Shown here in pieces: positions 44,490 through 61,238 of a stretch of DNA of 64,000 nt (the stretch's first letter is position 1; every line of letters starts with the position of its first letter). The position numbers and the translations under genes were made by a program. Under the pieces are notes generated by a model. It saw only the letters and a list, made by a program, of their open reading frames with translations. It did not search any database and had not been told where the DNA came from. This stretch comes from Candidatus Krumholzibacteriota bacterium (GTDB taxonomy: Bacteria > Krumholzibacteriota > Krumholzibacteriia > JAJRXK01), in NCBI GenBank assembly GCA_963727455.1, contig CAVSGG010000008.1, positions 160,001 to 224,000 of the forward strand, written 5' to 3'.

Positions 44490-45719
44490 TCAGGCGGGCC
44501 TGGTCTCTTTCAAGCAGCGCAGAAGCTCGTCGATGTCCGCTTCGGTGTGGGCCGCGTTGATTTGCACGCGAATCGTCTCGTCCCCGCGCGGCACCACAGG
44601 AAAGGTGAGTCCCACCACGAGGATGCCCCTCGCAAAGAGCTGGCTCACCCAGCGTCGCGTCTTCTCGGTGTCACGCACCAAGAGCGGGACTACCGGATGG
44701 GGCCCCGGAATGGACTCCAACCCCAAGAGCGCCACCCCGCGCCGGAACTGAGCCACCCGCTCGTGCAGGTGCTTCAGGCGCTTTTGACCCTCGGGCGAGG
44801 CGGCCAGTTCGACCGCGGCCAGCGCGGCCGCGCAGTCGGCCACTCCGAGCGGGTTCGTGTAGATGTAGGTGTCGGCCTTCTGACGTACCGCTTCGATGAG
44901 CTGGGCGCTCCCCGCGATGAAACCGCCGTTCACCCCGAAGGCCTTGCCGAAGGTCCCCACCACCACGTCCGCCTTTGCCTGGGTGAATTCCTCGGTGCCG
45001 CGAGCCGTATCCCCGTAGGCTCCGATCCCGTGCGAATCGTCCACGATGATGAGGATTCCCTCCTCGAAGCGCCCCTCGTGCGCAGCCACGATCTCACGGA
45101 TCTTCGCCAAGGGCGCGAAGTCGCCGCGCATACTGAAGATTCCGTCGCAGATCACCAGGACGCGCTTCATCCCCGCAGGCACCGCCTCCAGGCACTTTCT
45201 GAGTTCGGCCATGTCGTTATGGGCATAGATGGCCCGCTGTTGCGAAGGCACTCCGGCGATGCGCATTCCGCGGATGATGCAGTTGTGGTTGAGAGCGTCG
45301 CCAATCCAGTAGCTCTGTTTCCCGGCCAGGGTGAGGGCCAGGCCCAGATTGCTGGTATAGGCGGAATTGAAGATCTTGGCGGCTGGCTTGCCCAGGTACC
45401 GGGCAATCGCAGTCTCGAGTTGGCGGTGGTGGCGGAAGGTGCCGTCGATGAAGCGCACCGCGCCCGGCCCGACACCGAATTCGTGGGTGGCGCGGTCAGC
45501 GGCCTCCACCAGCTTGGGGTGATCGGAAAGGGAGAGGTAGGAATTGGAGTTCATGCGCAGGAATTCCTGCTCGCTTTCCTGCAGCCTATAGCGCGGTCCC
45601 CGCTTTCCCTTGGCGGGGAGATACCCCACGATCACTCTCTCGGGCGCCTTGGCCCGACCCTCATCCTTCAGGCCCTGCAGCTCCTTGGCCAATGCCTCGT
45701 CGATCTTCTGCATGCTCAT
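44490..45719 (-). CDS. kbl: Alpha-oxoamine synthase family PLP enzyme (glycine C-acetyltransferase / BioF-like)
   Basis: SNSYL, GPGAVRFIDGT, DALNHNCII, DGIFSMRG, DDSHG, GTFGKAFG, RVQINA. Confidence 0.8.
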   Translation of the reverse strand: MSMQKIDEALAKELQGLKDEGRAKAPERVIVGYLPAKGKRGPRYRLQESEQEFLRMNSNSYLSLSDHPKLVEAADRATHEFGVGPGAVRFIDGTFRHHRQLETAIARYLGKPAAKIFNSAYTSNLGLALTLAGKQSYWIGDALNHNCIIRGMRIAGVPSQQRAIYAHNDMAELRKCLEAVPAGMKRVLVICDGIFSMRGDFAPLAKIREIVAAHEGRFEEGILIIVDDSHGIGAYGDTARGTEEFTQAKADVVVGTFGKAFGVNGGFIAGSAQLIEAVRQKADTYIYTNPLGVADCAAALAAVELAASPEGQKRLKHLHERVAQFRRGVALLGLESIPGPHPVVPLLVRDTEKTRRWVSQLFARGILVVGLTFPVVPRGDETIRVQINAAHTEADIDELLRCLKETRPA

Positions 45720-45969
45720 AACGGGTCCCTCCTCCAGCGTTCCGCGCCCTTCTCGCTCGGCGCGGGCAGTGTAGTGCAGGGCTCCTCGCGCTCGCAAGCA
45801 GACAGCGACCAGGGGGCGGGCACAAAAAAGTTGGGCTCGAGGCAAAAAAGTCAAGCGGAGGATGCTGCGCGACTAGGGTATTTGACCTATTATGAGGTCT
45901 ATCAACACGCTGTCGAGCCCTACGCCGGCTCGACCCCATCGATTGGTTCCAAGTCGCGGAGTTCGCGCC

Positions 45970-46110
45970 ATGAAGACGAGACACGACGCTGGCCAGAAGC
46001 GTCGCCCCTACAGTCCACCCGTAGTCAAGCGGCAGAGTAATCTCAAGTTGATCACGCTTTTCACCCAGATGGGTCCGGATTCGAAGCGGACGGCGAACGG
46101 TTCCCACTAG
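45970..46110 (+). CDS. Putative RiPP precursor with lasso-type leader (46 aa)
   Basis: MKTRHDAGQKRRPYSPPVVKRQSNLKLITLFTQMGPDSKRTANGSH; GGAG SD; lies in an otherwise empty gap; spacing matches YxxPxLxxxGxxxxxTx. Confidence 0.65.
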   Translation: MKTRHDAGQKRRPYSPPVVKRQSNLKLITLFTQMGPDSKRTANGSH

Positions 46111-46134
46111 GGCCGCTCACAAAGCGCCCGGCCC

Positions 46135-47028
46135 CTACAACTTTTGCTCGACTGGAACGTGCCGCTCTGCGTGATAAGAGGAGCGCACGAAGACGCCACT
46201 TTCGACATGCGCGAAGCCCAGGGTTTCCGCATGCGCACCGATTTGCTCGAATTCCTCCGGCGGAACCCAGCGTTCCACTGGCAAATGGCGCGCACTGGGT
46301 TGTAAATACTGCCCGATAGTCAAAATGTCGACCTCAGCTTCGCGCAAGCGTTCACAGACTTCGTAGATCTCGTCCAAGCTCTCTCCCAGCCCCAGCATCA
46401 AGCCACTCTTCGTCCGTAAAACCTTTTCCCCCTTGGCCTTGGCAGCGCGGGCCAGCAACTGGAGGCTGCGCGGAAAGTCCGAGCCGTGGCGTACCCGCGA
46501 GTAGAGCCGGGGCACCGTCTCCACGTTGTGGTTGAGGATCTCGGGCCGGGCGGCGAGGACGGTCTTCAAAGCCTCTTCGCTGCCCCCGAAATCGGGGATG
46601 AGAACTTCCACCGTACAGCCGGGGTTTTCGCGCCGGATGGCGGCGATGGTGGCCGCGAAGTGGGCCGCGCCCCCGTCCGGCAGATCGTCGCGATTGACGC
46701 TGGTGACCACGGCGTGGCCGAGACCCAGCTCCTGTACTGCTTGCGCCACATGCTCGGGCTCTGCGGGATCGAGCAGGGCGGTGGAGCCCTTCTTCACCGC
46801 GCAGAATCCGCAATGCCGCGTGCACACCTCCCCCATGAGCATGAAAGTGGCGGTCCGGGCCGACCAGCATTCGAAGAGGTTGGGGCACTGGGCTTCCTCG
46901 CAGACAGTGGTCAGATGCAGCGAGCGCATCATGGAGCTGACGCCCTTCACCGCCTCGGAATCGCGCAGACGCAGGCGCAGCCACGGCGGACGCTGCGCGA
47001 TGCGTTCCTTCAAGCTCTCCCTGGGCAT
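46135..47028 (-). CDS. lipA: Lipoyl synthase
   Basis: CEEAQCPNLFEC, CTRHCGFC, NHNVETV, GQYLQP, VRSSYHA. Confidence 0.97.
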   Translation of the reverse strand: MPRESLKERIAQRPPWLRLRLRDSEAVKGVSSMMRSLHLTTVCEEAQCPNLFECWSARTATFMLMGEVCTRHCGFCAVKKGSTALLDPAEPEHVAQAVQELGLGHAVVTSVNRDDLPDGGAAHFAATIAAIRRENPGCTVEVLIPDFGGSEEALKTVLAARPEILNHNVETVPRLYSRVRHGSDFPRSLQLLARAAKAKGEKVLRTKSGLMLGLGESLDEIYEVCERLREAEVDILTIGQYLQPSARHLPVERWVPPEEFEQIGAHAETLGFAHVESGVFVRSSYHAERHVPVEQKL

Positions 47029-47030
47029 GA

Positions 47031-47693
47031 TCAGCTCACCCCTTCCACCATCTCGCGTTCGAAGACCGCGCCGAACTCGGGAACGAGTGCACGGGTGACC
47101 CGCTCCAGGCTCAGCTCCGAAAGCCCGAGCTCCTCAAGGGAGCTGACTCGTTTGTCCTGAATCCCGCAGGGCACGATGGTTCCGAAAAAGCGCAGGTCAC
47201 AGTTCACGTTCAGCGCGAAACCGTGGCTGGTGACCCAATGGCTGAGACGCACTCCGATGGCGGCTACTTTGGCGTCAGCCACCCACACCCCGGTGTAGCT
47301 CGGATGCCGTCCCGCCTGGATTTGGAACTTAGCCAGCACTCGGATCAAAACCTCCTCGAGACGCCGTAGGTAGCGGTGCGCGTCCCGTTCCCCTTCCCGC
47401 AATTGCAGGATAGGATAGCCCACGAGCTGTCCGGGGCCGTGATAGGTCACGTCGCCTCCCCGCCCGGATTCGTGCACCGTGAGATGGAGCCGTTCGCGCG
47501 CCGCCGGGTCCACTAGAATGTGTTCCTCACTCGCACGGCTTCCTTTGGTGAGAACGTGCGGATGCTCGAGCAACAGGAGCTGATCGGGGATCTCTCCCTG
47601 CCGACGCCGGCGCACCAGTTCCTCTTGCAAGCGGACGGCTTCCTCGTACCCCATGCAGCCGAGTGAGCGATAGTGACACGGAGGAAGTGGCAT
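47031..47693 (-). CDS. lipB: Octanoyltransferase
   Basis: LLEHPHV, RGGDVTYHGPGQLVGYP, KVAAIG, HGFALN, IVPCGI. Confidence 0.97.
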   Translation of the reverse strand: MPLPPCHYRSLGCMGYEEAVRLQEELVRRRRQGEIPDQLLLLEHPHVLTKGSRASEEHILVDPAARERLHLTVHESGRGGDVTYHGPGQLVGYPILQLREGERDAHRYLRRLEEVLIRVLAKFQIQAGRHPSYTGVWVADAKVAAIGVRLSHWVTSHGFALNVNCDLRFFGTIVPCGIQDKRVSSLEELGLSELSLERVTRALVPEFGAVFEREMVEGVS

Positions 47694-47706
47694 TTCCGCC
47701 CTACCC

Positions 47707-49160
47707 TCAGAGTGCGGTCTCGTCGAAGTTCTCCAGGGTCCTCTTCACCGAGCTCAAGAACACCTCCGCGGTGGCGCCGTCGACCAGTCGATGATCGTAG
47801 CCCAGCGTCATGTACATCTTGGGCCGAATGGCGATGGCGTCGTCGACGACGCAGACCCTCTTCTCCACGCTTCCCATCCCCAAAATCGCGACGTTTGGCT
47901 GTGAGATCACCGGGAAGCCGATGAGTCCGCCGAAGGAGCCGGGATTGGTGATGGAGAAGGTTGAGCCCTGGATCTCACTCAAATCCAGCTTGCGATCCCT
48001 TGCTCGCTTGGCCAGGTCGTCGATGGCTCGCGCGATTCCGGTCATGGAGAGATCCTGCGCGCGGCGAATCACCGGCACGATGAGACCCTGTTCCAGGGCG
48101 ACGGCGATCCCGACGTTGATGTCACCATGGAGAATGGCCTCGTCCCCCACCAGCGATGCGTTGACCACGGGCGTCGCGCGGAGCGCGTCGACCACTGCCT
48201 TCACCATGAACACGGTGTAGCTGAGCTTGGCGCCGCCCGCCGCCTTCATGAACTCCTCGCGGTGAGCCTTGCGCAGCTGATCGATGCGGCTCATGTCCAC
48301 TTCGTACAGCGTGTGCACGTGCGGCGAAAGCGCCTTGGAGATGACCATGTGCTCGGCAATCTTCTTGCGCATCTGCGAGAGCGGTTCGACTGTGTCGTTC
48401 TCGCCCTTGCCGGAGAGATAGGCCTGGACGGTCTTGGCCGGCCATCCGCTGACTCCCAGCATGGCGGAGCCCTCTACCGCGGGGGGACCCCCGTTTCCTG
48501 CGGGGCGCCCTGCGCGGCAGACTGGGCGAGAACTACTGGCGGCTGCGGCTGCAGGCTTGGCACCGCCCTCCTCGATGTAGGCCAGGATATCCTTCTTGGT
48601 CACCCGGCCCTGGATTCCACTGCCTTCGATCTTGTGATGTCGATCTCGTGCTCGGCCGCGATCTTGCGGACCACCGGCGAACTCTTGGTCCGGATCCGCT
48701 CCTCCCGAGACGCCGTCCCCTTGTCGCCGGCCGCGCCGGAGACCTTGGACTCCTCGGACCGTGCCGGAACTGAGGGTGTGGCCTCAGCCGTACTGGATTC
48801 TTTGGTGGCCGCGGAGACCTCGGGCCCTTCACTTTTGGAGGCCTCGCTCTCTTGCGACTTCTCGTTCGCGGGCGTCGGGGAGGGTTCGGGCTCCTTGCTC
48901 TCGGACTTGGCGCCGGCGCCATCCTCTTCGCCGATTCGCGCGACGACGGTGTTGATTTCCACCGTTTCCCCTTCCCCAACCAGAATCTCCAGCAGAGTCC
49001 CCGCCTGGGGCGCGGGAATCTCCGCGTCCACCTTATCGGTGGAGATCTCGAATAGGGGCTCGTCGTGCTCGACCACATCGCCCACTTTCTTGAGCCACTT
49101 GGTGATGGTGCCCTCGGCGATGCTCTCGCCCATCTGAGGCATGATCACTTCGCTTGCCAT
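47707..49160 (-). CDS. 2-oxoacid dehydrogenase E2 (dihydrolipoamide acyltransferase), frameshifted in this assembly
   Basis: Lipoyl domain MPQMGESIAEG...EISTDKVDAEIP, binding domain SPVVRKIA, catalytic DHRLVDG; split near 48600-48640. Confidence 0.9.
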
Positions 49161-49224: not shown

Positions 49225-50205
49225 TCAGTATCGTACCAAAGTCCGGGCTTTCGCCACCACCTGAGCCGCTTGAGGCAGGAATGCCTCTTCCAGGGGGGGA
49301 CTGTAGGGCACCGCGCTATCCGGGGACGCAAGCCGCATCAAGGGTGCATCCAACCACTCGAAGGCTCTCTCGGAGATTCGCGCGGCGAGTTCACCTCCGA
49401 AGCCACCGTTCAGTGTCGCTTCGTGCAACAACAACACTCGACCGCTGCGCCGCGCCGCCGCGAGTACCGCCTCTTCATCCAGAGGAACGAGACTGCGCAG
49501 ATCCACAACTTGCGCCTCGATCCCGTCTTCTTCGGACAGCTGGCCCGCAGCCCGCAGTGCGGTGTGTACCATCGCTCCGTAGGTGATGATCGCCAGATCC
49601 CCGCCCTCTCGCAAAGTTGCAGCCTTCCCCAGCGGAGTAAGGATCTCCTCGTCCTCGGGAAGCTCCTCTTTGATCCGGCGGTAGAGGTACTTGTGCTCCA
49701 AAAAGAGTACTGGATCGTCGTCGCGGATCGCCGCTTTCAGAAGACCTTTCGCGTCGCGTGCGGTCGCCGGCTGCACGATTTTCAATCCCGGCGTGGAGCT
49801 AAAGAAGTTCTCCACGTTTTGGCTGTGGAATGGACCTCCGTGGACACCGCCCCCCGAAGGTCCCCGAATGACGATGGGCACCGAATAGCCCAGTCGGTAG
49901 CGCGCCTTCGCGGCCCAGTTGACGATCATGTTGAAGGCACAGGCGATGAAGTCGATGAACTGCATCTCGACCACCGGCCGCATGCCCTCCAGCCCCAGTC
50001 CGATGGCGCATCCCACGATTGCCGATTCGGAAATCGGAGTGTCCAGAATGCGCTTGGGTCCGAAATGTTCGAGCAGGCCCGAGGTTGCGCGAAATGCTCC
50101 GCCGTAGTGTCCGACGTCTTCTCCCATGAGCAGCACCGATTCGTCGCGCTCCATCTCCTCCCACAGCCCGTCATGAATGGCCTCGATGTAGCTCCGTTCC
50201 GCCAT
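49225..50205 (-). CDS. 2-oxoacid dehydrogenase E1 beta subunit
   Basis: MAERSYIEAI, GEDVG, DTPISE, EMQFIDF, GGPFHSQ; strong SD GGAGGAGG. Confidence 0.93.
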   Translation of the reverse strand: MAERSYIEAIHDGLWEEMERDESVLLMGEDVGHYGGAFRATSGLLEHFGPKRILDTPISESAIVGCAIGLGLEGMRPVVEMQFIDFIACAFNMIVNWAAKARYRLGYSVPIVIRGPSGGGVHGGPFHSQNVENFFSSTPGLKIVQPATARDAKGLLKAAIRDDDPVLFLEHKYLYRRIKEELPEDEEILTPLGKAATLREGGDLAIITYGAMVHTALRAAGQLSEEDGIEAQVVDLRSLVPLDEEAVLAAARRSGRVLLLHEATLNGGFGGELAARISERAFEWLDAPLMRLASPDSAVPYSPPLEEAFLPQAAQVVAKARTLVRY

Positions 50206-51256
50206 CACCCCTCCTCCCTTTGTCCGCGGCGAGGATCGTCGTCCTCCGCGTAGACTCCACCGAAGGCCAGCGAGGGATCGGGCATGGGCGAGTTCTGGGC
50301 ATACTCCGCGTCCTCCTCGAGTTCCTTGGCGATGGGTTCGCGCATTTCGTCCAGCTGCGAGCTGGGTGACCAGGCCTTCTCCCAAGAGGTAGTTCCGCAA
50401 GCGATCGATGGGATCGCGCGCCTCCCAGTACTTGCGAAGGTCCTGCGGCACGTAGCCGGCATCGTCGTGCTCGGCGTGTCCTCGACGGCGGAAGGTGAGC
50501 ATTTCCAACAAGATGGGGCCCTCTCCCTTGCGACATCGGCGCACGGCGCGCGCGGTCGAGTGATAGACTGCGATGACGTCGTTGCCGTCGACCCGCTCTC
50601 CCTTGATGCCATAGGCCTTGGCCCGGTCGGCGAAACGTGGATTGCCCGTTTGAGATGCGGTCGGAGTGCTGTACGCATAGCCGTTGTTCTCGCAGACGAG
50701 GATCAAGGGGAGCTTCCAGACCGCAGCCAGATTCAGGGCTTCGTGGAAATCTCCGGTGGAAGACCCACCGTCGCCGATGTAATTCATCGCCACGTTCTTC
50801 TTCCCGCGCAGCTTGGCGGCGAGAGCCGTTCCGGCGAGCACCGGAATCATCGCCCCCAGCATGGAAATGGGCGCCACGAGATCTCGTTCGATCGATCCGA
50901 AGTGGGTGTTGCCGTCACGACCGAAAGTAGGGACTTGTGGCGCGGGCCAGATACTGGGTGAAGATCTCCCGGGGACGAACGCCCTTGACCAGGAGCGATC
51001 CCAGGTTACGAATGAGCGCGCCCATTCGGTCGCCCTTTTCCAGGGCATAAGCGGTCCCCACCGCCACTGCTTCCTGTCCCAACGAACTGTAGAGACCGCC
51101 GACGACTTGGCCCTGACGGTAAAGCTTGCTCAAGCGGTCCTCGGTCATGCGCGTAAGGATCATGTACCGGTACAGTTCGAGAAGTTGTTTCTTGCCCAAA
51201 CGGGCAGTGGTATGGCGCAAGAGCGGAGGTACCGGATCAGCAGCATTGAACGCCAT
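50205..51256 (-). CDS. 2-oxoacid dehydrogenase E1 alpha subunit, two frameshifts (~50940, ~50360)
   Basis: GQEA, TPP motif GDGGSSTGDFHEALN...ENNGYAYS, RRRGHAEHD spread over three frames. Confidence 0.88.
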
Positions 51257-51259
51257 GGC

Positions 51260-52690
<1,431 letters not shown>

Positions 52691-52846
52691 CTACCACGCG
52701 GAGAGGGAAAAGTAGCACAAGTCCACGGTTTGCCCACCCGAAGCCCCAATTCCTTCGCCCAAACCCCCGCCGTGGGGCGCCGATTCATGGATTCAAATGT
52801 TTGGGTTTGATCGTCAAATGGTCTTACGGTGCGCGTGCCTCGGCGA

Positions 52847-52875: not shown

Positions 52876-52911
52876 CTTCTCCCGACCGGTCCTATGCCCC
52901 TTGGAGGAACC

Positions 52912-53205
52912 GTGGTCTTCAACCCCGACTTTCGCCCGAGCCGAAACGATCAGGTCCGTTGGCAGGCTGTCGACGAAGAGGGCATCCTCGTGAATCTCGA
53001 GACGGGCTTTTACTTCAGTTTGAATCCAGTGGCCCTGTTCATCTGGGACCTCTGCGATGGCGAAGCTTCCAACGCGCAGATTCTGGAGAAGATCGTGGAG
53101 AACTTCGACGTGGTCGAGGAGACGGCCCGTCAAGATTTCGAGGCATTTCTGGAGGCCCTGGAGAACGAGAACCTCCTCGTCGTGTCTCCTCCCAGGGCGA
53201 GCTAG
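52912..53205 (+). CDS. PqqD family protein (stand-alone RiPP recognition element)
   Basis: VDEEGILVNLETGFYFSLNPVALFIWDLCDG...FDVVEETARQDFEAFLEALENENLL; GGAGG SD before GTG. Confidence 0.9.
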   Translation: MVFNPDFRPSRNDQVRWQAVDEEGILVNLETGFYFSLNPVALFIWDLCDGEASNAQILEKIVENFDVVEETARQDFEAFLEALENENLLVVSPPRAS

Positions 53206-54308
53206 CCGCGAAAGTCCTCTCTTCGCGGATGCACAAACCCCCTCCCCCCAAGCGTGGATTGACGAAGCACGGGTCGCGCCAAGAGCGTGAGTACCTGTGG
53301 ACCCAGGATTTCGACCGCAGGAATACCTCCGTCGCATAGTTGAGATACCAGATCGGGACCACGCCACTTCTTCGGCGCTGCCATAGCGTACGCGCGACCA
53401 GACCGCGCCAAATCCGTGATCGAAGCGTCCCGGACCCGCCAGACTCTGGGTAGGCCCGCGGGGCCCTGGAGACCAAGGAGCAAACTGGCAGTCCGCAGCA
53501 CCCGGCTCAGCTCCTATTGCACTCCCATTTCCCTCGCGCGCGCGGAGAGGGTATGCCCATCGACCCTTCTCCGGCGCGCGAAGGCCAGCGTCTCCACACG
53601 GCCGGATCATGCCGGCGTAGTTCTCGTCATGGTCGATGCGGAGGCACGAATGGATGAGTGAATCGTAATCGTCCAGGCGCCTCATCTTCTCGTAATCGGG
53701 GCGAGAGAGGAAGGGAACGCGTCCACATCCCGTCCAGATCGAGATGAAAGGGATGCGGGGGACGAACCATGATCCCAGTGCAAGTTGAGCCTGAGTGCGG
53801 GACAGCTGGGTAAATAACGTGGCTCGGCGCGGTGATGGTGCAGGTAATATTCCTGCGGAAGCTTGCCGAGGCGCAGAAAGCCACAAGCATCGACCAAGCG
53901 TTCAGCCTCTTCCATCGCGGCGCGGCCGAGCAGGAGATCCATTTCGCCCGGACCGCGCAGCCAGCCCCGAGGCTCGTAGAGCAAGATGCGCAGGGCGGTC
54001 CCGTTCAGAGCGATCGCGGGAATGGAAGCTTCGGCGAATTTCTCAGCCAGCCGCCGTGTCGAGTCCCCGGCGACCAGATCGAAGGCAGCCGTGAGTTCGT
54101 GTGCCTCCTGCATCCTCAACTTGAGCAGTGGGGGAAGCTCGTCGTAGACGCCTTCGTCCTTTAGTACTCGGTAGAGCAAGGGGAGAATGCCGTTGTCGTT
54201 GGCCAGCTCCAAACCGGAGGCGTCGGGAGCCAGAAGGGGACAGCTCGTCTCGTCTTTGGCCATGAGACGAGCGATCCAGTGCAGCAGCTGATGAGGGGCG
54301 CGGTTCAC
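53202..54308 (-). CDS. Uncharacterised nucleotidyltransferase family protein (NTP_transf_5-like), frameshifted in the 3' half
   Basis: GILPLLY, IALNGTAL...Y...LRGPGEMDLLL, LNLHW (family pattern LKG..L...Y...R...DIDLL, ELHW); continuation in other frames to 53202. Confidence 0.7.
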
Positions 54309-54329: not shown

Positions 54330-55286
54330 CTAGTGTCGATACACGTAGATGGAAAAGACGATGTACAGAGTCAAGAGCATCGCGGCTTCCGGCCGCTCCA
54401 CGCGGCCGTGGCGACGCATGATGGGAATGACCGCCAGCGTGAACAAGAGCATCACCATGAGCAAGAACCCAGTGGATCCGGATTCGTAAGGAATCTCAGC
54501 TCCTCCGAAGCACGCACTGATACCCAGCACGAAGAGCAAGTTGAGGATGTTCGAGCCAAGGATGTTGCCCACACCGATCTCATGCTGTCCTCTCAGTACC
54601 GCCACCACCGAAGCCGCAAGCTCGGGAAGGGAGGTGCCCTACGGCAACCATGGTGGCGCCGATCACACTCTCGTCGATTCCCAATTGCAAGGCGATGGCC
54701 CTGGCGCCCGTCACGAGCACTGTCGCACCGCCCACCAAGAAGGCCAGACCCAACACGACCATGAGCGAAGGAAGCAGCATACCTCCCTCGCCAGGATCGA
54801 TTACTCCCTCCAACGGTGTCTCCTTGATGGCATGTCCGCTTCTGACGTAGTACCAGGTGAAGAGAACGAGGCCCAGGAGGAGGATGATCCCGTCGTAGAC
54901 GGAATAACCCGCGCGGAAAGAGGGCCAGCGCGATTCCCAGGAGAGTCATCGCAACCAGGATCTTGACCTCCGCGCTCACCCGCGCCCAGGGCACATGGAT
55001 GGGCCGAAGCAGTCCCAGGATGCCCAAAATGAGTCCAATATTGGCGATATTGGATCCCAATACGTTTCCCAGGGCCAAACCGCCCGAACCCATTCGTGCC
55101 GCGGTGAGCGATGCGACCGCTTCGGGAGCACTGGTCCCGAAGGCCACGATCGTCATCCCCACCACCATGGGACGGACCCCCATGCGGAAGGCAATGCGAG
55201 ATCGAGCCCCGAACGAGGATCTCGGCACCGAACCAGGTACCGATCGCCCCACCCACCAGGTATGCGATAGCCAGGAAGCCATGCAC
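54330..55286 (-). CDS. Calcium/sodium antiporter (CaCA, YrbG-like), frameshifted
   Basis: Alpha repeats VAFGTSAPE...GNVLGSNIANI and IGATMVAVG...GNILGSNILN across frames. Confidence 0.88.
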
Positions 55287-55359: not shown

Positions 55360-55388
55360 TTGACCGCTGATCGGCTTCACCGTATCCT
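55360..55388 (+). promoter_or_regulatory. Putative sigma70 promoter of the sugar operon
   Basis: TTGACC-17 nt-TATCCT. Confidence 0.55.
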
Positions 55389-55459
55389 TGCTTCTCCTTC
55401 ATGCCAAGACTCAGCTTGCCATGTCGCCCTCAAGGACGAACTACAGGAGAACGCGGATA

Positions 55460-56434
55460 ATGCGCGCATTGATCACCGGGTACACGGGTTTCGTGGGTAG
55501 CCATCTCGCGGAGGCCCTTCTCGAGCGCGGCACCGAAGTGTACGGGCTCTATCGCTGGCGGAGCCGGCTCGAGAACGTCAAACACCTCCAGGGCCGCGTT
55601 CACCTGGTCGAGGGAGACATCGCCGACGCGGCGGCGATGCGCCACGCCGTGGCGCTCTCGCGTCCGGACGAAATCTACCATCTGGCGGCACAGTCTTTCG
55701 TTCCGACCTCGTGGACGAGCCCGGGCGCCACTCTGGATACCAACATCCAGGGTGAGCTCAATCTTTTCGAAGCAGTGCGGCAGCTCGAAGATCTCCCCAC
55801 GAATTCAAATCGCCGGTAGCAGCGAGGAGTACGGACTCGTTCGTGAGGATGAACTGCCGATCACCGAGGAGCAACCGCTCCGCCCCCTCTCCCCCTACGC
55901 GGTGAGCAAGGTGGCCCAAGATCTCTTGGCACATCAGTACTTTCGCTCGTACGGACTCGATGTGGTTCGCACGCGCGGATTCAATCACACCGGACCCCGC
56001 CGCGGTCAGGTCTTCGTGTGTTCCAATTTTGCCTGGCAGATCGTCCGAATCGAGCGCGGCAGGCGGAGCCCATCATCCGCGTGGGCAACCTCGAAGCCCG
56101 CAGGGATTTCACGGACGTAAGGGACATCGTGAGGGGCTATCAGCTCGCCTTGCAAAAGGGCGAGGCCGGCGAGGTCTACAATCTGTGTTCCGGCCGCGAT
56201 TGGAGCATTCAGCAGATCCTGGATCACCTGCTCTCGCGCAGCGAGGTCGAGGTGAAAGTCGAATTCGATCCTGCGCGCGCTCGACCCAGCGACGTGCCCG
56301 TCCTTCAGGGCAGTGCCGCGAAATTTCATGCTGTCTCCGGATGGAAACCCGAAATTCCCTTCGAGAGAACCCTCGATCAGATTCTGGACCACTGGCGGCA
56401 AGATCTTGCGTCCGCAAGAGGCTCCGACTCTTGA
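55460..56434 (+). CDS. GDP-mannose 4,6-dehydratase / Rmd-like extended SDR, two frameshifts
   Basis: ITGYTGFVGSHL, HLAAQSFV, GSSEEYG, SPYAVSK, FNHTGPRR, GNLEARRDFTDVRD. Confidence 0.85.
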
Positions 56435-57403
56435 AGCGCGCTTGGGTCACGGGGAGTCATGGCTTCGTTGCGCCATGGTTGATTCGTGAGCTCACACGGC
56501 GAAGAATCGAGGTCTTCGGGATCGACCGTCCCGGCCGTCCGCCCCGCACAAGAAGGCGAATACGAGGGACTCGAGCTGGACCTTCTCGACCCAGGCCGTA
56601 GATCGCGCCCTGCGGAAACATCGGCCCGACGCAATTTTCCATCTCGCCGCGCAGAGTAGCGCCGCGCGTTCCTTCCAGCATCCCGCAGAGACCCTGCACG
56701 TGAACGTGCAGACCACGGTGAGTTGCTCGAGGGAATCAGGCGTTCGGCAAGAGACGAAATGGTGTTGCTCTCGGTGGGTTCCTGCGAAGAGTACGGGCCG
56801 ATTCATGACGAGCAGGAGATTCCAGTGCGCGAGGATCACGCGCTGCGTCCAGCATCGCCCTACGCCGTGAGCAAAGTGGCGCAGACGCTGCTGTGCCTAC
56901 AGTACCACGAGGCCTATGCTCTGCCCGTGGTCTGCACGCGATCCTTCACTCACAGTGGCCCCGGCCAGAGCGACCGCTTCGTGTTCTCGAGCTTTGCCCG
57001 CCAGATCGCCGAGCAAGAGAAGGAAGGCCAAAGGGGACCAGGTGAGCTCCTCGTGGGAAACCTGGCGGCAGTGCGCGACTTGAGCGACGTGCGAGACGTT
57101 GCGCGCGCCTATGTGGAATTGGCCGAGAAGGGTAAACGCGGCGAGGTGTACAACGTGTGCTCCGGGAGGGGTATCGCGATCGAAGATGGGCTCTCGATTC
57201 TCCGCTCGCTCTCCAAGCGCGAAGTCGAGGTCAAGGTCGATCCGAAACGGCTCCGGCCGCTCGACGTTCCCGTCCTAGTGGGAGACGTGAGCAAGTTGCG
57301 CTCTCTCTTGGGTTGGTCCCCCTCCACGCCGGTCGAGCAAACTCTCGGTGATCTGCTCCAAGATTGGCGCATGCAGCTTCAGAGAGGAGAGCCCAATGGC
57401 TAG
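56431..57403 (+). CDS. Second Gmd/Rmd-like extended SDR, frameshift near 56550
   Basis: VTGSHGFV, HLAAQSS, GSCEEYG, SPYAVSK, GNLAAVRDLSDVRD. Confidence 0.83.
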
Positions 57404-58703
57404 GATTTGCATGGTGGGGACCGGCTACGTCGGGCTGGTGTCGGGCGCCTGCTTCGCGGACTTCGGTCACGAAGTTCACTGCGTGGACATCGACGAAAAG
57501 CGCATCGAGGCCCTGAAGCGTCACGAAATTCCCTTCTTCGAGCCGGGTCTCGATCAGCTCGTGCTCCGTAACCATCAGTCAGGCAGACTCCACTTCAGCA
57601 CGAAGCTCGAGGCGGGTATCCGCGCCTGTGAGGTCATCATGATCGCGGTCCAGACTCCGAGCGGAGAGCGCGGTGAAGCCGACTTGCGTCACGTTTTGAG
57701 CGTGGCACGGGAGGTGGGACGGCATCTCTTGCCGAAGGAACGGAAGCTGATCGTGACCAAGAGTACGGTTCCCGTGGGCACCTCACGCCGAGTCAAGGCG
57801 GAGATCGCGGAGAGCGCGCCTTCGGGCTCGGTATTCGAAGTCGCTTCGAATCCCGAGTTCCTGCGCGAAGGCAGCGCGATTGAGGATTTCATGCGACCGG
57901 ACCGCGTGGTTCTCGGGGTTGAGTCCGAGGAGGCGGAGCGAGTGCTGCGCGAACTCTATCGGCCGCTCTTTCTGCTCGAGACGCCGATGGTCGCTTGCGA
58001 CATCTCCACCAGCGAGCTGATCAAGTACGCGAGCAATGCGTTTCTGGCTTTGAAGATCTCCTACATCAACGAGCTTGCCGATCTCTGCGAGCGGACCGGG
58101 GCCAACATCTCTGCCGTGGCTAAAGCCATGGGACTGGATGGCCGCATCGGCCCCAAATTCCTCCATCCCGGGCTGGGATTCGGAGGATCCTGCCTTCCCA
58201 AGGACACCAGAGCGATCGTGAACATGGCAAAGGAACACGGAGAGGAATTATCGATCATCTCGGCCGCGATCCGGGTGAACATGATGCGCGTCCCCCGAGC
58301 GGTACAAAAGCTCGAGGGGCTTCTGGGAAAGATCGAAGGCAAGCGCGTGGCCCTTTTGGGACTTGCGTTCAAACCCAACACCGATGACGTGCGGGAGGCC
58401 CCCGCGATCGAGCTGGTAAAAGTCCTGCGCGAGAGAGGCGCTAGTGTGGTGGGATTCGATCCCCAGGCCGCCGAGAGCTTTCGCCGAGTCGTGAGGGACA
58501 TGGAGACGGCGCAGGACGCTTACGCCTGCGCTGAAGCTGCGGACGCCCTCGTTCTGGTCACCGAGTGGAATTCCTTCCGTACCCTCGATCTACTGCGTTT
58601 GAAGTCCTCAATGCGGACCGCCGTATTCCTGGATTGCCGCAACGTCTACGAGCGTGCGCGCATGGAGAGTTTGGGATTCGCCTACGATTGCTTTGGACGG
58701 TGA
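57396..58703 (+). CDS. ugd: UDP-glucose/GDP-mannose 6-dehydrogenase
   Basis: GTGYVGL, KSTVPVG, NPEFLREG, KYASNAFLA, GFGGSCLPKD, FKPNTDD. Confidence 0.94.
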   Translation: MARICMVGTGYVGLVSGACFADFGHEVHCVDIDEKRIEALKRHEIPFFEPGLDQLVLRNHQSGRLHFSTKLEAGIRACEVIMIAVQTPSGERGEADLRHVLSVAREVGRHLLPKERKLIVTKSTVPVGTSRRVKAEIAESAPSGSVFEVASNPEFLREGSAIEDFMRPDRVVLGVESEEAERVLRELYRPLFLLETPMVACDISTSELIKYASNAFLALKISYINELADLCERTGANISAVAKAMGLDGRIGPKFLHPGLGFGGSCLPKDTRAIVNMAKEHGEELSIISAAIRVNMMRVPRAVQKLEGLLGKIEGKRVALLGLAFKPNTDDVREAPAIELVKVLRERGASVVGFDPQAAESFRRVVRDMETAQDAYACAEAADALVLVTEWNSFRTLDLLRLKSSMRTAVFLDCRNVYERARMESLGFAYDCFGR

Positions 58704-58713
58704 TTCCGTGGAG

Positions 58714-59976
58714 ATGAAGGCACGGAGCGGCTTCGCTGCGGGCATGGCCTGGAACCTGGCCTCCGCCGCTCTTCCCCTCGTCGCGTCGTTCTTGGTTTCG
58801 GTGCTCCTCTTCCCCTACCTCGGACGAGAAGCGACCGGGCAATACATCCTGGTCATGTCGGCCGCCACCGTGCTCCTCATCGTGGCCAAGTTCGGGGTGC
58901 AGTCAGCGGCCAGCCGACTGATCACCGAGAACCAAGAAGACCCGGGAGTTTGGATCAGGGCCGGTATCGCGGTGCGGAGTCTTTTCACGCTCCCAACCGC
59001 TTTGCTCGCACTAGTGATCTCCCCTTTTCTGGCGCGAGCGATCGACGGGCCTTCGCTCATACCTCCCTTCTGGTTGGTGGCTCCCGTTCTCTTGGCGGCC
59101 TCGGCCTATGAGCTCGCTAGCGAATCCCTGGTCGGGCTGAGGCGCTTCTCCGCGATCTTCTTGGTTCGCCTGTTGTTTCTCGTGCTGCGGGTGGCCGCGG
59201 TGCTCGTCGTGCGCTCGTCTGCCCTGGGTGTCGTGGCCTTTCTCGTCGGACACGTACTGTCCCAGCTTCTGACCTCCGCGGCAGCCTGGGGCTGGATCCT
59301 GCGGCACTTTCCCTCCCGTGCAACTCAGGAGGAGAAAACGCGGGCGCGCAAACGTGTATTGGCGGTGAGCGCCCCTTTGGCGCTGTCTTCGGCGTCCTTT
59401 CTCATCTACGCCCAAACCGACAAGCTCATGGTGGGTTGGTTGCGTGACGCGGCGACCGCAGGAGATTTTGGGGTGGCGCGCACGGTGCTCGACGCGGCTC
59501 TGTTTCCGACCTTTGCGCTCGCCTGGACGCTCAGACCAGCCCTGGTGAGCGCGTTCCAGTCGCGAGACGTCCAGGAGACACGCGCGCGTCTCTTGGAGGG
59601 ATTGCGCTGGTCGGTGGCCTATGCACTGCTGGGTGGACTCCTGCTGTATTGGTTGGGACCGGCCGTTCTGGTGCGGCTGTTTACGCGCGACTTTTCCGCC
59701 TCCGGACCCCTCCTGCGCATCATGGTGCCCATATTGGTGCTGCGCGGGATTGGCACTGTCATTTTCCCCAGCCTGCTCGCCGCTGACCGTCAAACTACCT
59801 ATGCCCGACTCATGGTCCTCACGGCTCTCTTGAACGTGGCGGCCAACTTCCTTCTCATTCCCCCCTTGGGGGCAGAAGGCGCGATCCTGGCCACCATCGC
59901 CAGCTTGCTCCCTTTGACCGTGGGTGGATTGTGGATCGTGGCGAAGCTCTTCTTGAGAAGTGAGCAAAGCCGCTGA
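58714..59976 (+). CDS. Wzx-type polysaccharide flippase (MOP superfamily)
   Basis: About 12 TM segments, TDKLMVG, LNVAANFLLIPPLGAEGAILAT. Confidence 0.87.
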   Translation: MKARSGFAAGMAWNLASAALPLVASFLVSVLLFPYLGREATGQYILVMSAATVLLIVAKFGVQSAASRLITENQEDPGVWIRAGIAVRSLFTLPTALLALVISPFLARAIDGPSLIPPFWLVAPVLLAASAYELASESLVGLRRFSAIFLVRLLFLVLRVAAVLVVRSSALGVVAFLVGHVLSQLLTSAAAWGWILRHFPSRATQEEKTRARKRVLAVSAPLALSSASFLIYAQTDKLMVGWLRDAATAGDFGVARTVLDAALFPTFALAWTLRPALVSAFQSRDVQETRARLLEGLRWSVAYALLGGLLLYWLGPAVLVRLFTRDFSASGPLLRIMVPILVLRGIGTVIFPSLLAADRQTTYARLMVLTALLNVAANFLLIPPLGAEGAILATIASLLPLTVGGLWIVAKLFLRSEQSR

Positions 59977-60143
59977 GAGTTCACGCTCTTCGGCCGCGGA
60001 TGCCCGAAAGACTCCGAACTCCAAGGTGAGAGTCCGCAGCATCGATAATGCTTGACCTGTTCGCCGGGGAACGGTAAACGAAGGGCAGCGCCGCGATTCG
60101 CCGCACTTGCGCCTTGCCTCCTCGACTTCGGAGAAGCGCGAAC

Positions 60144-61238
60144 ATGTCCATCCTGTCGACAATTTTCGGCTTTAGTCTCGCGTGCCTGGTTTGTCTCGCT
60201 CTCACTCCTCTGGTCGCTCGCCTGGCAATCTCGGATGGACTTCGCAGCTCGACACCGCGCCGTTCCGGCTTGGCACCCGAGGTGCGGCCCCGGATCGGTG
60301 GGCTCGCGATCTATGGGGCGGTAGTACTCACCCTCCTCCTCTCGGCCTTCGCGTTCCCCGCGCTACAGAACCCCGCTGCAACGCGCTTCTTGAGCGGAGT
60401 CATCCTCTCCGGTGGACTGGTCGTCATCTTAGGACTGATCGACGATTTGCAGGAGAGCCTTCCCTGGAAGAAGTTGATCACTCAGGCGCTGGCCGTGCTG
60501 GTGCTGCAGTTCTACATGGACGTTCTGGGTTTCGCGATGGCCATGGGTCCCTGGTTGCACTTGGTGGTCTCACTGGTGCTTTTGCTCTGGATGCTGGGCC
60601 TGAGCAATGCCATGAACCTCATCGACGGTCTGGATGGACTGGCAGCTTCCATCGCGGCGCTGATCGGCTTGGGCATGTCCGTCGTGGCGCTCGCCCTTCA
60701 TCTGCCTTTGGCCGCATTGACCGCGGCCGTAATCTCAGGGGCGAGCTTCGCCTTTTTGCGCAAGAATGCACCGCCCGCGTCCATCATCATGGGCGATACT
60801 GGCTCGATGTTCACCGGATTCGCGCTTGCCGCGGTAGGAGTCGCGATCTTCGGAGCCCGTCCTTCCGCGCGGACTCTCCTGGGCCTACTTCTCATCTCCT
60901 GGGTTCCTGCATTGGACACCTTCTACGCGGTTCTGCGGCGCTGGGCGCGCAGGAGCAGCATCTTCCATGGCGATCTCGGACATCTGCACCACCGCCTGCT
61001 CGATGCCGGCTTTTCGCAGAAAAGCGCAGGGCTCGGTCTGAGCGCACTCACACTCTTGGGAGCAGTCACTGGAGCGGCGGTAATCCTGGGCCGCCACGCT
61101 CTTCTCTTTACAACTGCCCTCCTGCTTGCCACCTTCTTGCTGGTGTGGATCGTACTGCCGCACCTTTTCTCGCGCTTGGATGAGTCGAGCGCGAAGAGCC
61201 GGCGTGTCGACGCCGTTTCGCATGACAAAGCCGCCTGA
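60144..61238 (+). CDS. WecA/TagO-like polyprenyl-phosphate sugar-1-phosphate transferase (MraY family)
   Basis: PRIGGLAI, GLIDD, NAMNLIDGLDGL, MGDTGS, DLGHLHHRL. Confidence 0.92.
   Translation: MSILSTIFGFSLACLVCLALTPLVARLAISDGLRSSTPRRSGLAPEVRPRIGGLAIYGAVVLTLLLSAFAFPALQNPAATRFLSGVILSGGLVVILGLIDDLQESLPWKKLITQALAVLVLQFYMDVLGFAMAMGPWLHLVVSLVLLLWMLGLSNAMNLIDGLDGLAASIAALIGLGMSVVALALHLPLAALTAAVISGASFAFLRKNAPPASIIMGDTGSMFTGFALAAVGVAIFGARPSARTLLGLLLISWVPALDTFYAVLRRWARRSSIFHGDLGHLHHRLLDAGFSQKSAGLGLSALTLLGAVTGAAVILGRHALLFTTALLLATFLLVWIVLPHLFSRLDESSAKSRRVDAVSHDKAA

Follow-up and report, generated by a model that had tools for sequence, protein, structure and literature searches.

HprK-like kinases phosphorylate the precursors of lasso peptides, a class of RiPPs (peptides that are ribosomally synthesized and then post-translationally modified), and for pseudomycoidin a nucleotidyltransferase adds hexoses to the phosphate (reviewed in PMC8498205). 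The Bsf kinase phosphorylates the precursor at Ser3 and requires the RiPP recognition element (RRE; B1); lasso leaders are defined by YxxPxL at positions −17 to −12 and Thr/Ile at −2 (PMC10368454). A linear counterpart is formed by the linear polyphosphorylated peptides (LPPs), RiPPs made with a kinase and a nucleoside triphosphate (NTP) transferase and encoded by LppA/B/K/N/S/D in Paenibacillus alginolyticus (Popov et al., Nat Commun 2026, PMC13381572). Their leader, YxxPxVLxHQxIxFETxxS, is cut after T, Ser3 is phosphorylated, and according to these authors the systems are restricted to Bacillota and often adjoin capsule loci. Here we describe a 46-codon open reading frame (ORF) at positions 45970..46110 of a 64-kb stretch of DNA (the window) from a Candidatus Krumholzibacteriota bacterium, the genome of which (G000) is 88.85% complete. 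The encoded peptide is interpreted as an orphan precursor of a cyclase-less RiPP set with a lasso-type leader, in a genome that has partly lost this set.

The translation of 45970..46110, MKTRHDAGQKRRPYSPPVVKRQSNLKLITLFTQMGPDSKRTANGSH, is identical to the 46 aa reported in the initial annotation, which had placed the ORF in the gap between kbl and lipA, with its ATG at 45970 after a GGAG; all coordinates agree. The ORF is a real small gene, since it starts and stops alike and is of equal length in G001, a genome of the same genus, its ratio of nonsynonymous to synonymous substitutions (dN/dS) against G001 is 0.21 (dN 0.117, dS 0.548), and it is covered by contigs of both DNA and RNA libraries. 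Over the intergenic region the two genomes are 80% identical in nucleotides, and 14 of the 24 differences within the ORF fall on third codon positions. The other five frames of the ORF region gave dN/dS values of 0.43, 1.5, 1.7, 1.9, and 3.0. A longer frame starting at ATG 45892 is broken in G001 by a 2-bp indel just upstream of the ORF, the alignment falls apart past the ORF stop, and the 140 nt on the 5′ side (45830-45969) are well conserved.

A word-based search of 5.8 billion proteins returned just three relatives (98, 83, and 80% identity), and the five close sequences in which the ORF is seen (the window, P0002-P0004, and P0027) all agree in start, stop and length. Contigs of two DNA sequencing runs cover the ORF without gaps: record 3 of run X1 (45942-47924) and record 10 of run X2 (45899-46410). 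A contig from an RNA library, run X7, spans it as well (Table 1) and is a hint of expression only, as neither the strand nor the ends of a transcript can be read from it and carried-over DNA may be its source. Otherwise X7 yielded only 19-47-nt scraps over an 11-kb stretch, and this sparse cover was not taken as evidence on the expression of neighbouring genes.

The peptide belongs to a family whose members are 33-60 aa long and come mainly from Krumholzibacteria. Sixteen peptides of 36-57 aa, obtained when 201 genomes of the phylum were searched in six frames at the protein level and the loci inspected, were aligned. Most members have a Shine-Dalgarno-like site (GGAG/GGGAGG) ahead of the ATG (seen at 10 of 13 candidate starts). 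In the numbering of the window peptide, the invariant residues are Y14, P17, L25, T29, and L30, with K26 and I28 conserved to at least 90%. Counted from a cut after L30, these positions include Y(−17), P(−14), V/L(−12), and T(−2), invariant or nearly so throughout; the window peptide thus carries the lasso leader YxxPx[L/V/I] with Thr(−2) as Y14, P17, V19, and T29. The spacing Y1/P4/V6/S10/T16 noted in the initial annotation was correct and corresponds to Y14, P17, V19, S23, and T29. Past I-T-L, an aromatic residue or Leu is followed by Ser or Thr in 16/16 members, most of which go on with F-x-P-P. Conservation in relatives had been put forward as a check, and ORF, YxxP motif and Thr are indeed conserved, both in G001 and across the family. 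The proposal of a lasso/RRE-type leader is likewise borne out, by the conservation in 16 members, by the PqqD genes of relatives, which lie directly downstream of the peptide gene, and by the likeness of the RRE to TbiB1.

By itself the leader motif is rare, not unique: the strict form Y..P.[LVI]...[GS].....T. was found in 5 of 76,773 six-frame stop-to-stop pieces (at least 20 aa) of G000 and the looser form Y..P.[LVIAF].{9}T. in 66. It is by homology that the ORF stands out from chance. A non-circular hidden Markov model, built from only the seven peptides in or next to clusters of other genera, ranked the window ORF first among these pieces (E = 6e-8) and a paralogue on contig C18 second (3e-7), followed by a match at E = 2.3. 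With the profile of all 16 peptides, 62 of 1.84 billion cluster representatives were matched at E ≤ 0.001 and 14 at ≤ 1e-10; small peptides of 33-78 aa made up 60 of the 62, and none of the ten matches looked up bore an informative name. For the peptide and for three of its relatives, no NCBIfam or Pfam match emerged at thresholds as loose as E ≤ 10 or 0.1. Among solved structures, the peptide profile gave only a chance match by sequence, to S21 (E = 5.2). The literature yielded no account of the peptide family in Krumholzibacteria, and for the kinase and PF14907 families a single listed paper, which is unrelated.

The gene clusters of relatives show what such a peptide is encoded with. Locus L032 (genome G041) comprises the peptide, PqqD, a kinase, an ATP-binding cassette (ABC) ATPase, an ABC-2 permease, a PF14907 protein (425 aa), and B2. 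L034 (G053) comprises the peptide, PqqD, kinase, ABC ATPase, a PF14907 protein of 429 aa, and B2, with no permease family scored; L035 (G054) holds the peptide, PqqD, kinase, and both ABC genes before the contig ends, and L030 (G145) the peptide, PqqD, and kinase. The kinase protein (324-333 aa) has no Pfam match at 1e-5 and scores 37-51 bits on HprK-related kinase A (TIGR04352; cut-off 200). The small PF13471 protein of these clusters passes the NCBIfam lasso B2 model NF033537 (39.6 bits vs a cut-off of 33); B2 is present in G002, G004, G005, G041, and G053. No signal-peptidase family was found among the Pfam-scanned cluster genes of L030, L032, L034, L035, and L051, B2 being found instead. 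Compared by sequence with solved structures, the kinase had no match and N, the PF14907 protein, only chance-level ones (E at least 0.085). The complete system comprises a PqqD-type RRE, a lasso-type B2, an HprK-like kinase, the PF14907 NTP transferase N and an ABC-2 exporter, and no cyclase.

Among the 201 genomes, the peptide profile matched 14 and the kinase profile 15 at E ≤ 1e-5. All 11 genomes with strong kinase matches (E ≤ 6.5e-24) carry the peptide, a count to be read with the fact that the models were themselves drawn from 9 of the 14 genomes in the case of the peptide and from 4 of the 11 in the case of the kinase, and that related genomes are not independent samples. The four weak kinase matches (E 4.6e-8 to 1.6e-6) are in genomes without the peptide, and the three peptide genomes without the kinase (G000, G001, and G003) belong to one genus. 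By analogy with the Bsf and paeninodin lasso peptides and with LPPs, the RRE of a complete system would bind the leader at Y-x-x-P-x-V and present the peptide to the kinase, which would phosphorylate the invariant Ser/Thr just past I-T-L. N would then further decorate the peptide, after which B2 would cut the leader off and the short linear product would be exported.

A 730-765-aa Sortilin/BNR-repeat protein was seen after the peptide or the peptide-PqqD-kinase unit at four Krumholzibacteria/Eisenbacteria loci (L030, 11253-13484; L034, 9903-12197; L080, 2205-4406; L123, 1697-3892). Three of the four (L034, L080, and L123) contain a FlgD_ig domain, and that of L034 also has a Por_Secre_tail, a tail of the type IX secretion system.

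The initial annotation had proposed a 16-aa lasso core with a ring between Phe1 and Asp7. A true lasso precursor of this kind, its cyclase and B2 being encoded in the unassembled ~11% of the genome, would be in keeping with the exact lasso spacing of the leader, with Asp at core position 7 in G000, G001, and P0003, with an RRE closest to TbiB1 and with the incompleteness of the genome, but it is highly improbable. Asp37 (core position 7) is Gly in P0002, which is 98% identical, and also in the X2 DNA contig and the X7 RNA-library contig (46079 A>G). Several family members stop 7-8 residues past T-L, without an acidic residue; a lasso core with a conserved Asp/Glu at 7-9 and a threading tail was thus not found. 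No Asn-synthase-like (PF00733) gene was present among those scanned within ~7 kb of the peptide at L030, L032, L034, and L035. The best PF00733 match of G054 is partial (model positions 2-131, 31 bits) and on a separate contig, and the sole full-length match of G041 sits on the other contig. In G000, four PF00733 genes score 433-492 bits on TIGR01536, the model of glutamine-hydrolysing asparagine synthase (cut-off 267), and 198-243 bits on the lasso cyclase model NF033535 (cut-off 525) and are of the AsnB type. A macrolactam cyclase was accordingly found neither in G000, at its 88.85% completeness, nor at the loci of the four relatives, and this lack is shared with LPPs. B2 is missing from G000 and also from G001, which is 96% complete in 9 contigs.

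A lasso product with a Phe1-Asp7 ring thus finds no support, given the unconserved Asp7, the short cores and the AsnB-type synthases. Favoured is what the annotation had held as a fallback, another RRE-dependent class, in the form of a cyclase-less kinase/NTP-transferase system like that of LPPs. The lesson for mining genomes is that a lasso product cannot be taken for granted from a leader that is perfectly lasso-like.

The window itself retains a discrete PqqD-type RRE (B1) and N. This PqqD is 90% identical to that of G001 and scores 42.3 bits on NF033536 and 36.6 bits on NF033530, both below cut-off. In G000 and G001 the PqqD gene is directly convergent with N. In G002 the order is lpd, PqqD, B2, kinase, ABC, ABC-2, and then N and a Na/Ca exchanger gene on the opposite strand; G004 has the genes as in G002, except that its PqqD is unconfirmed. 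In all four genomes the peptide, of a type here called A, is encoded on the far side of a dehydrogenase/lipoate operon, beside a kbl-like gene. Profile searches of G000 and G001 gave no match for B2 (PF13471) or the kinase in either; tblastn with distant K, N, and B2 proteins had found nothing in G000, so that profile searches were needed. The only HprK of G000 is the housekeeping one (204.6 bits), and an HprK-like kinase beside a discrete RRE is thus a feature of the relatives, not of G000 or G001. Because the locus of G001 is contiguous, in a genome that is 96% complete, the difference is a clean loss, in G000 and G001, of ~3.3 kb with B2, the kinase, and both transporter genes.

What was left behind is constrained. 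Between G000 and G001, dN/dS is 0.045 for PqqD, 0.20 for the 5′ part of N, and 0.21 for the peptide, as compared with 0.127 for lipA, 0.125 for lipB, and 0.12 for the kbl-like gene; peptide, PqqD, and N are all under purifying selection. In G003, the fifth genus member (93% complete), no PqqD, N, kinase or type-A peptide was found, which counts as a co-loss of type-A peptide, RRE, and N. Because the peptide, the RRE, and N remain under purifying selection, the peptide is taken as a client of the remaining RRE: we give a probability of roughly 60% to the reading in which the Y14-x-x-P17-x-V19 leader is still bound by this RRE and the peptide passed on to N. Thr32, which occupies the invariant Ser/Thr position of the family (Y+18), would be the candidate residue for modification. 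As the dedicated kinase, peptidase, and exporter are gone, the most likely product is a cell-bound peptide, uncleaved or otherwise processed, and not a secreted lasso.

That the peptide is a decaying relic, an orphan precursor left functionless by the deletion and not yet broken, is improbable. Three of the six cluster genes (B2, kinase, and exporter) are gone, the D37G polymorphism occurs and P0027 has changed residues at the cleavage site, all of which would suit decay. A dN/dS of 0.21 at a dS of 0.55, however, represents divergence enough for stops or indels to appear in a neutral 46-codon ORF, whereas start, stop and length are unchanged in all five close sequences and the RNA-library contig covers the ORF; PqqD and N are likewise constrained.

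It is also conceivable, if unlikely, that peptide, RRE, and PF14907 protein form a minimal module kept by selection, in which N acts directly on the RRE-bound peptide. N could then nucleotidylylate or sugar-phosphorylate Thr32 or Ser45 to give a cell-bound modified peptide, perhaps with a sugar nucleotide from the adjacent polysaccharide locus as substrate. If true, this would be an undescribed kind of RiPP-like system and a natural setting in which to learn the activity of PF14907. The polysaccharide and sugar-nucleotide genes lie beyond N and the Na/Ca exchanger gene, with equivalent neighbours in G001, G002, and G004, and, by analogy with the LPP loci (PMC13381572), may be linked to the peptide system.

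Several observations speak against the peptide being a client of the remaining RRE. The peptide gene is 7 kb from the RRE gene, across the 2-oxoacid dehydrogenase/lipoate operon, and they are tied together only by their phyletic co-occurrence across five genomes, all of one genus. With dedicated kinase, peptidase, and exporter missing, G000 cannot run the canonical pathway, and the genome is only 88.85% complete. In the close relative P0027, Ser replaces Thr(−2) and Leu-Pro replaces Phe-Thr, which hints at relaxed constraint on the cleavage/modification site in this lineage. In the one study in which LPPs were expressed, nothing visible changed when the N homologue was deleted (PMC13381572). 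Finally, the reading frame of N switches five times in this assembly.

The frameshifts are probably assembly indel errors or strain differences, not gene decay. P0067, an intact protein of 367 aa, is 100% identical to window N over residues 1-179 and collinear with it in six pieces to residue 366, and X1 contigs are one or two bases short precisely where N switches frame (53267, 53301, 53439, 53693, and 53772); for these reasons indel errors are the reading adopted. At 51483 (lpd) and 54905 (Na/Ca exchanger) the base is missing in both X1 and X2 contigs. Frameshifted reading was also observed in lpd (51160-52718), the Na/Ca exchanger (54330-55282) and a gene of the GDP-mannose-dehydratase family (55388-56434), housekeeping genes included, and contigs of independent runs are without single or double bases at shift sites 51483, 52676, 53267, 53301, 53439, 53693, 53772, 54636, and 54905.

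A further point against a role for the RRE comes from a second family member in G000, type B (contig C18, 11585-11716, minus strand; locus L061), which lies downstream of a major facilitator superfamily transporter gene. It lacks Thr(−2) and the F-T-N-F-G-P-P core that its G002 and G004 counterparts keep. Its dN/dS is nevertheless 0.09-0.16 among G000, G001, and G003, even though G003 has no PqqD or N, so that purifying selection on such peptides need not require RiPP machinery. Type A might accordingly be an autonomous small protein (e.g. a regulatory or structural micropeptide) that descends from a RiPP precursor and is independent of the RRE and N, a possibility that we regard as doubtful. 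Its distance of 7 kb from PqqD, its own Shine-Dalgarno sequence and the upstream block conserved with G001 would fit autonomy. Type A, however, retains the full RRE motif and I-T-L-F-T in G000, G001, P0002, and P0003, types A and B are the only Y-x-x-P family peptides in G000, in which PqqD is strongly constrained (0.045), and type A was not found in G003, the sole genus member without PqqD and N.

Distance from the enzymes is usual for precursors of this family, as indicated by G041, where a second, orphan member (L031, C2 ~593.8 kb) lies ~490 kb from the cluster (L032, C2 ~103.4 kb). This orphan copy is also beside an aminotransferase gene; a link between peptide and aminotransferase was considered and rejected, because the two enzymes are no orthologues (26 bits). 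In this family, kilobases to hundreds of kilobases often separate a precursor from its enzymes, which bears on genome mining.

The coordinates of the features are collected in Table 1. The plus-strand ORF sits between two minus-strand genes. The kbl-like gene has glycine C-acetyltransferase (308.8 bits, cut-off 460) and BioF (292 bits, cut-off 426) as its top NCBIfam models, both below cut-off. Past lipA follow lipB and the E2, E1, and lpd genes of a 2-oxoacid dehydrogenase, and then the PqqD gene. A single 607-aa frame (49225-51048, minus strand) contains both E1-alpha (E1_dh) and E1-beta (Transket_pyr, Transketolase_C) domains; G001 encodes E1-beta separately (327 aa), and the frame of the window is either a true fusion or an assembly indel. 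A scan for promoters and terminators found a sole promoter-like site, sigma-70-like, on the minus strand (45916..45889) and facing the kbl-like gene, and no terminator-like site. Rfam gave a single chance-level match (E = 0.12) on 45600-46250.

Table 1. Positions of the peptide gene, its parts and associated features in the window.
Feature	Position	Strand	Basis or remark
Kbl/BioF-family pyridoxal phosphate enzyme	44490..45719	−	PF00155, 147 bits
RNA-library contig, 283 nt (run X7, record 25)	45931..46213		2 differences, one of them 46079 A>G
Shine-Dalgarno sequence GGAG	45958..45961	+	8 nt ahead of ATG 45970; read from sequence
46-aa precursor-type peptide gene, type A of the genus	45970..46110	+	stop TAG 46108-46110
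Leader recognition and cleavage motif, Y14-x-x-P17-x-V19 ... L25-K26-x-I28-T29-L30	46009..46059	+	alignment conservation
Putative core F31-H46	46060..46107	+	Thr32 at the invariant Ser/Thr position of the family
Lipoyl synthase-like radical SAM gene	46135..47028	−	Radical_SAM, 66 bits, and LIAS_N
PqqD-family RRE (lasso B1 type)	52894..53205	+	PF05402, 69.6 bits; only PqqD in the genome
PF14907 (NTP_transf_5) nucleotidyltransferase N	53208..54308	−	62.6 bits on the first open piece; convergent with PqqD
Context: two GDP-mannose-dehydratase-family genes, UDP-glucose/GDP-mannose dehydrogenase, Wzx-like flippase, GT4	55388..61238	+	Pfam

The wider distribution of the leader was surveyed with a degenerate DNA pattern on contigs of one genome per species, which gave 75 loci. 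Eleven belong to the Krumholzibacteria type, found as well in Eisenbacteria and in metagenome-assembled genomes (MAGs) titled without a phylum. A sister type with an x-C-x-x-W-x-C...PPPP core, often in several copies per genome, accounts for 55 of the 75 (L063-L135); its hosts are Thermoleophilia, Gaiellales, and other Actinomycetota MAGs (e.g. L087, 2144 and 6176). The remaining loci are of other types (7/75) or have no match in translation (2/75). Four Cys-type loci were scanned, three of which (L087, L116, and L133) have an Hpr_kinase_C-like gene and large proteins without a Pfam family. The Eisenbacteria locus L097 holds the peptide, the kinase, and PF14907. The window represents a natural reduced state of such systems, with peptide, RRE, and NTP transferase, and offers a test bed for the activity of PF14907.

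Comparison with described systems starts from the RRE. By sequence, the closest solved relatives of the window PqqD family are TbiB1 (PDB 5v1u; E = 1.5e-16), followed by two PqqD-family entries of 2026 and TfuB1 (PDB 6jx3; 5.3e-8); TbiB1 and TfuB1 are RREs of cyclase-containing lasso pathways. A PqqD-fold RRE together with a small peptide that has an RRE-binding motif similar to the lasso one likewise recalls the PqqA/PqqD pair of PQQ biosynthesis (PMC13381572). The window PqqD, however, scores 32.5 bits on TIGR03859, below the equivalog cut-off of 46, and its neighbours are lpd and N rather than pqqB/C/E, genes for which the genome was not searched. With the phosphorylated and phosphoglycosylated lasso peptides (paeninodin, pseudomycoidin, and Bsf), the present systems share the B1 RRE, B2, an HprK-like kinase K, a nucleotidyltransferase N, and the YxxPxL leader (PMC8498205, PMC10368454). 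The lasso clusters of those reports carry a cyclase C, and their cores have Asp/Glu at 7-9, whereas the present family is without cyclase and without a conserved acceptor.

The likeness to LPPs (PMC13381572) extends to the register of the precursors, with Y1, P4, V6, H/Q9, an aliphatic residue at 12, T16, and S/T19 in common, and to their occurrence as one to several small precursors per genome, at a locus beside polysaccharide genes. LppA is cleaved after T16 and phosphorylated at S19 (Ser3), and the Ser/Thr of the Krumholzibacteria peptides at Y+18 stands in equal register; the LPP leader positions L7, Q10, F14, and E15 are not common to the Krumholzibacteria family. A lasso-type B2 (PF13471/NF033537) is found here in contrast to the SpI/SipW-like leader peptidase of LPPs, a two-gene ABC-2 exporter in contrast to an MsbA-like one, and cores of 7-27 aa in contrast to 45. 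The hosts are Krumholzibacteria and Eisenbacteria rather than Bacillota, and the window, moreover, is without kinase, peptidase, and exporter. A PF14907 gene adjoins the window PqqD; the main text of PMC13381572 is silent on whether LppN falls in PF14907. Lasso-peptide relatives that are linear and kinase-dependent first became known in 2026 and were reported from Bacillota only (PMC13381572), and a comparable system, with B2 and very short cores, is present here. Judged from its gene content and motifs, the complete system appears to be a new variant of the LPP/phospho-lasso kind, a member of neither family, with LPPs as its closest known relatives.

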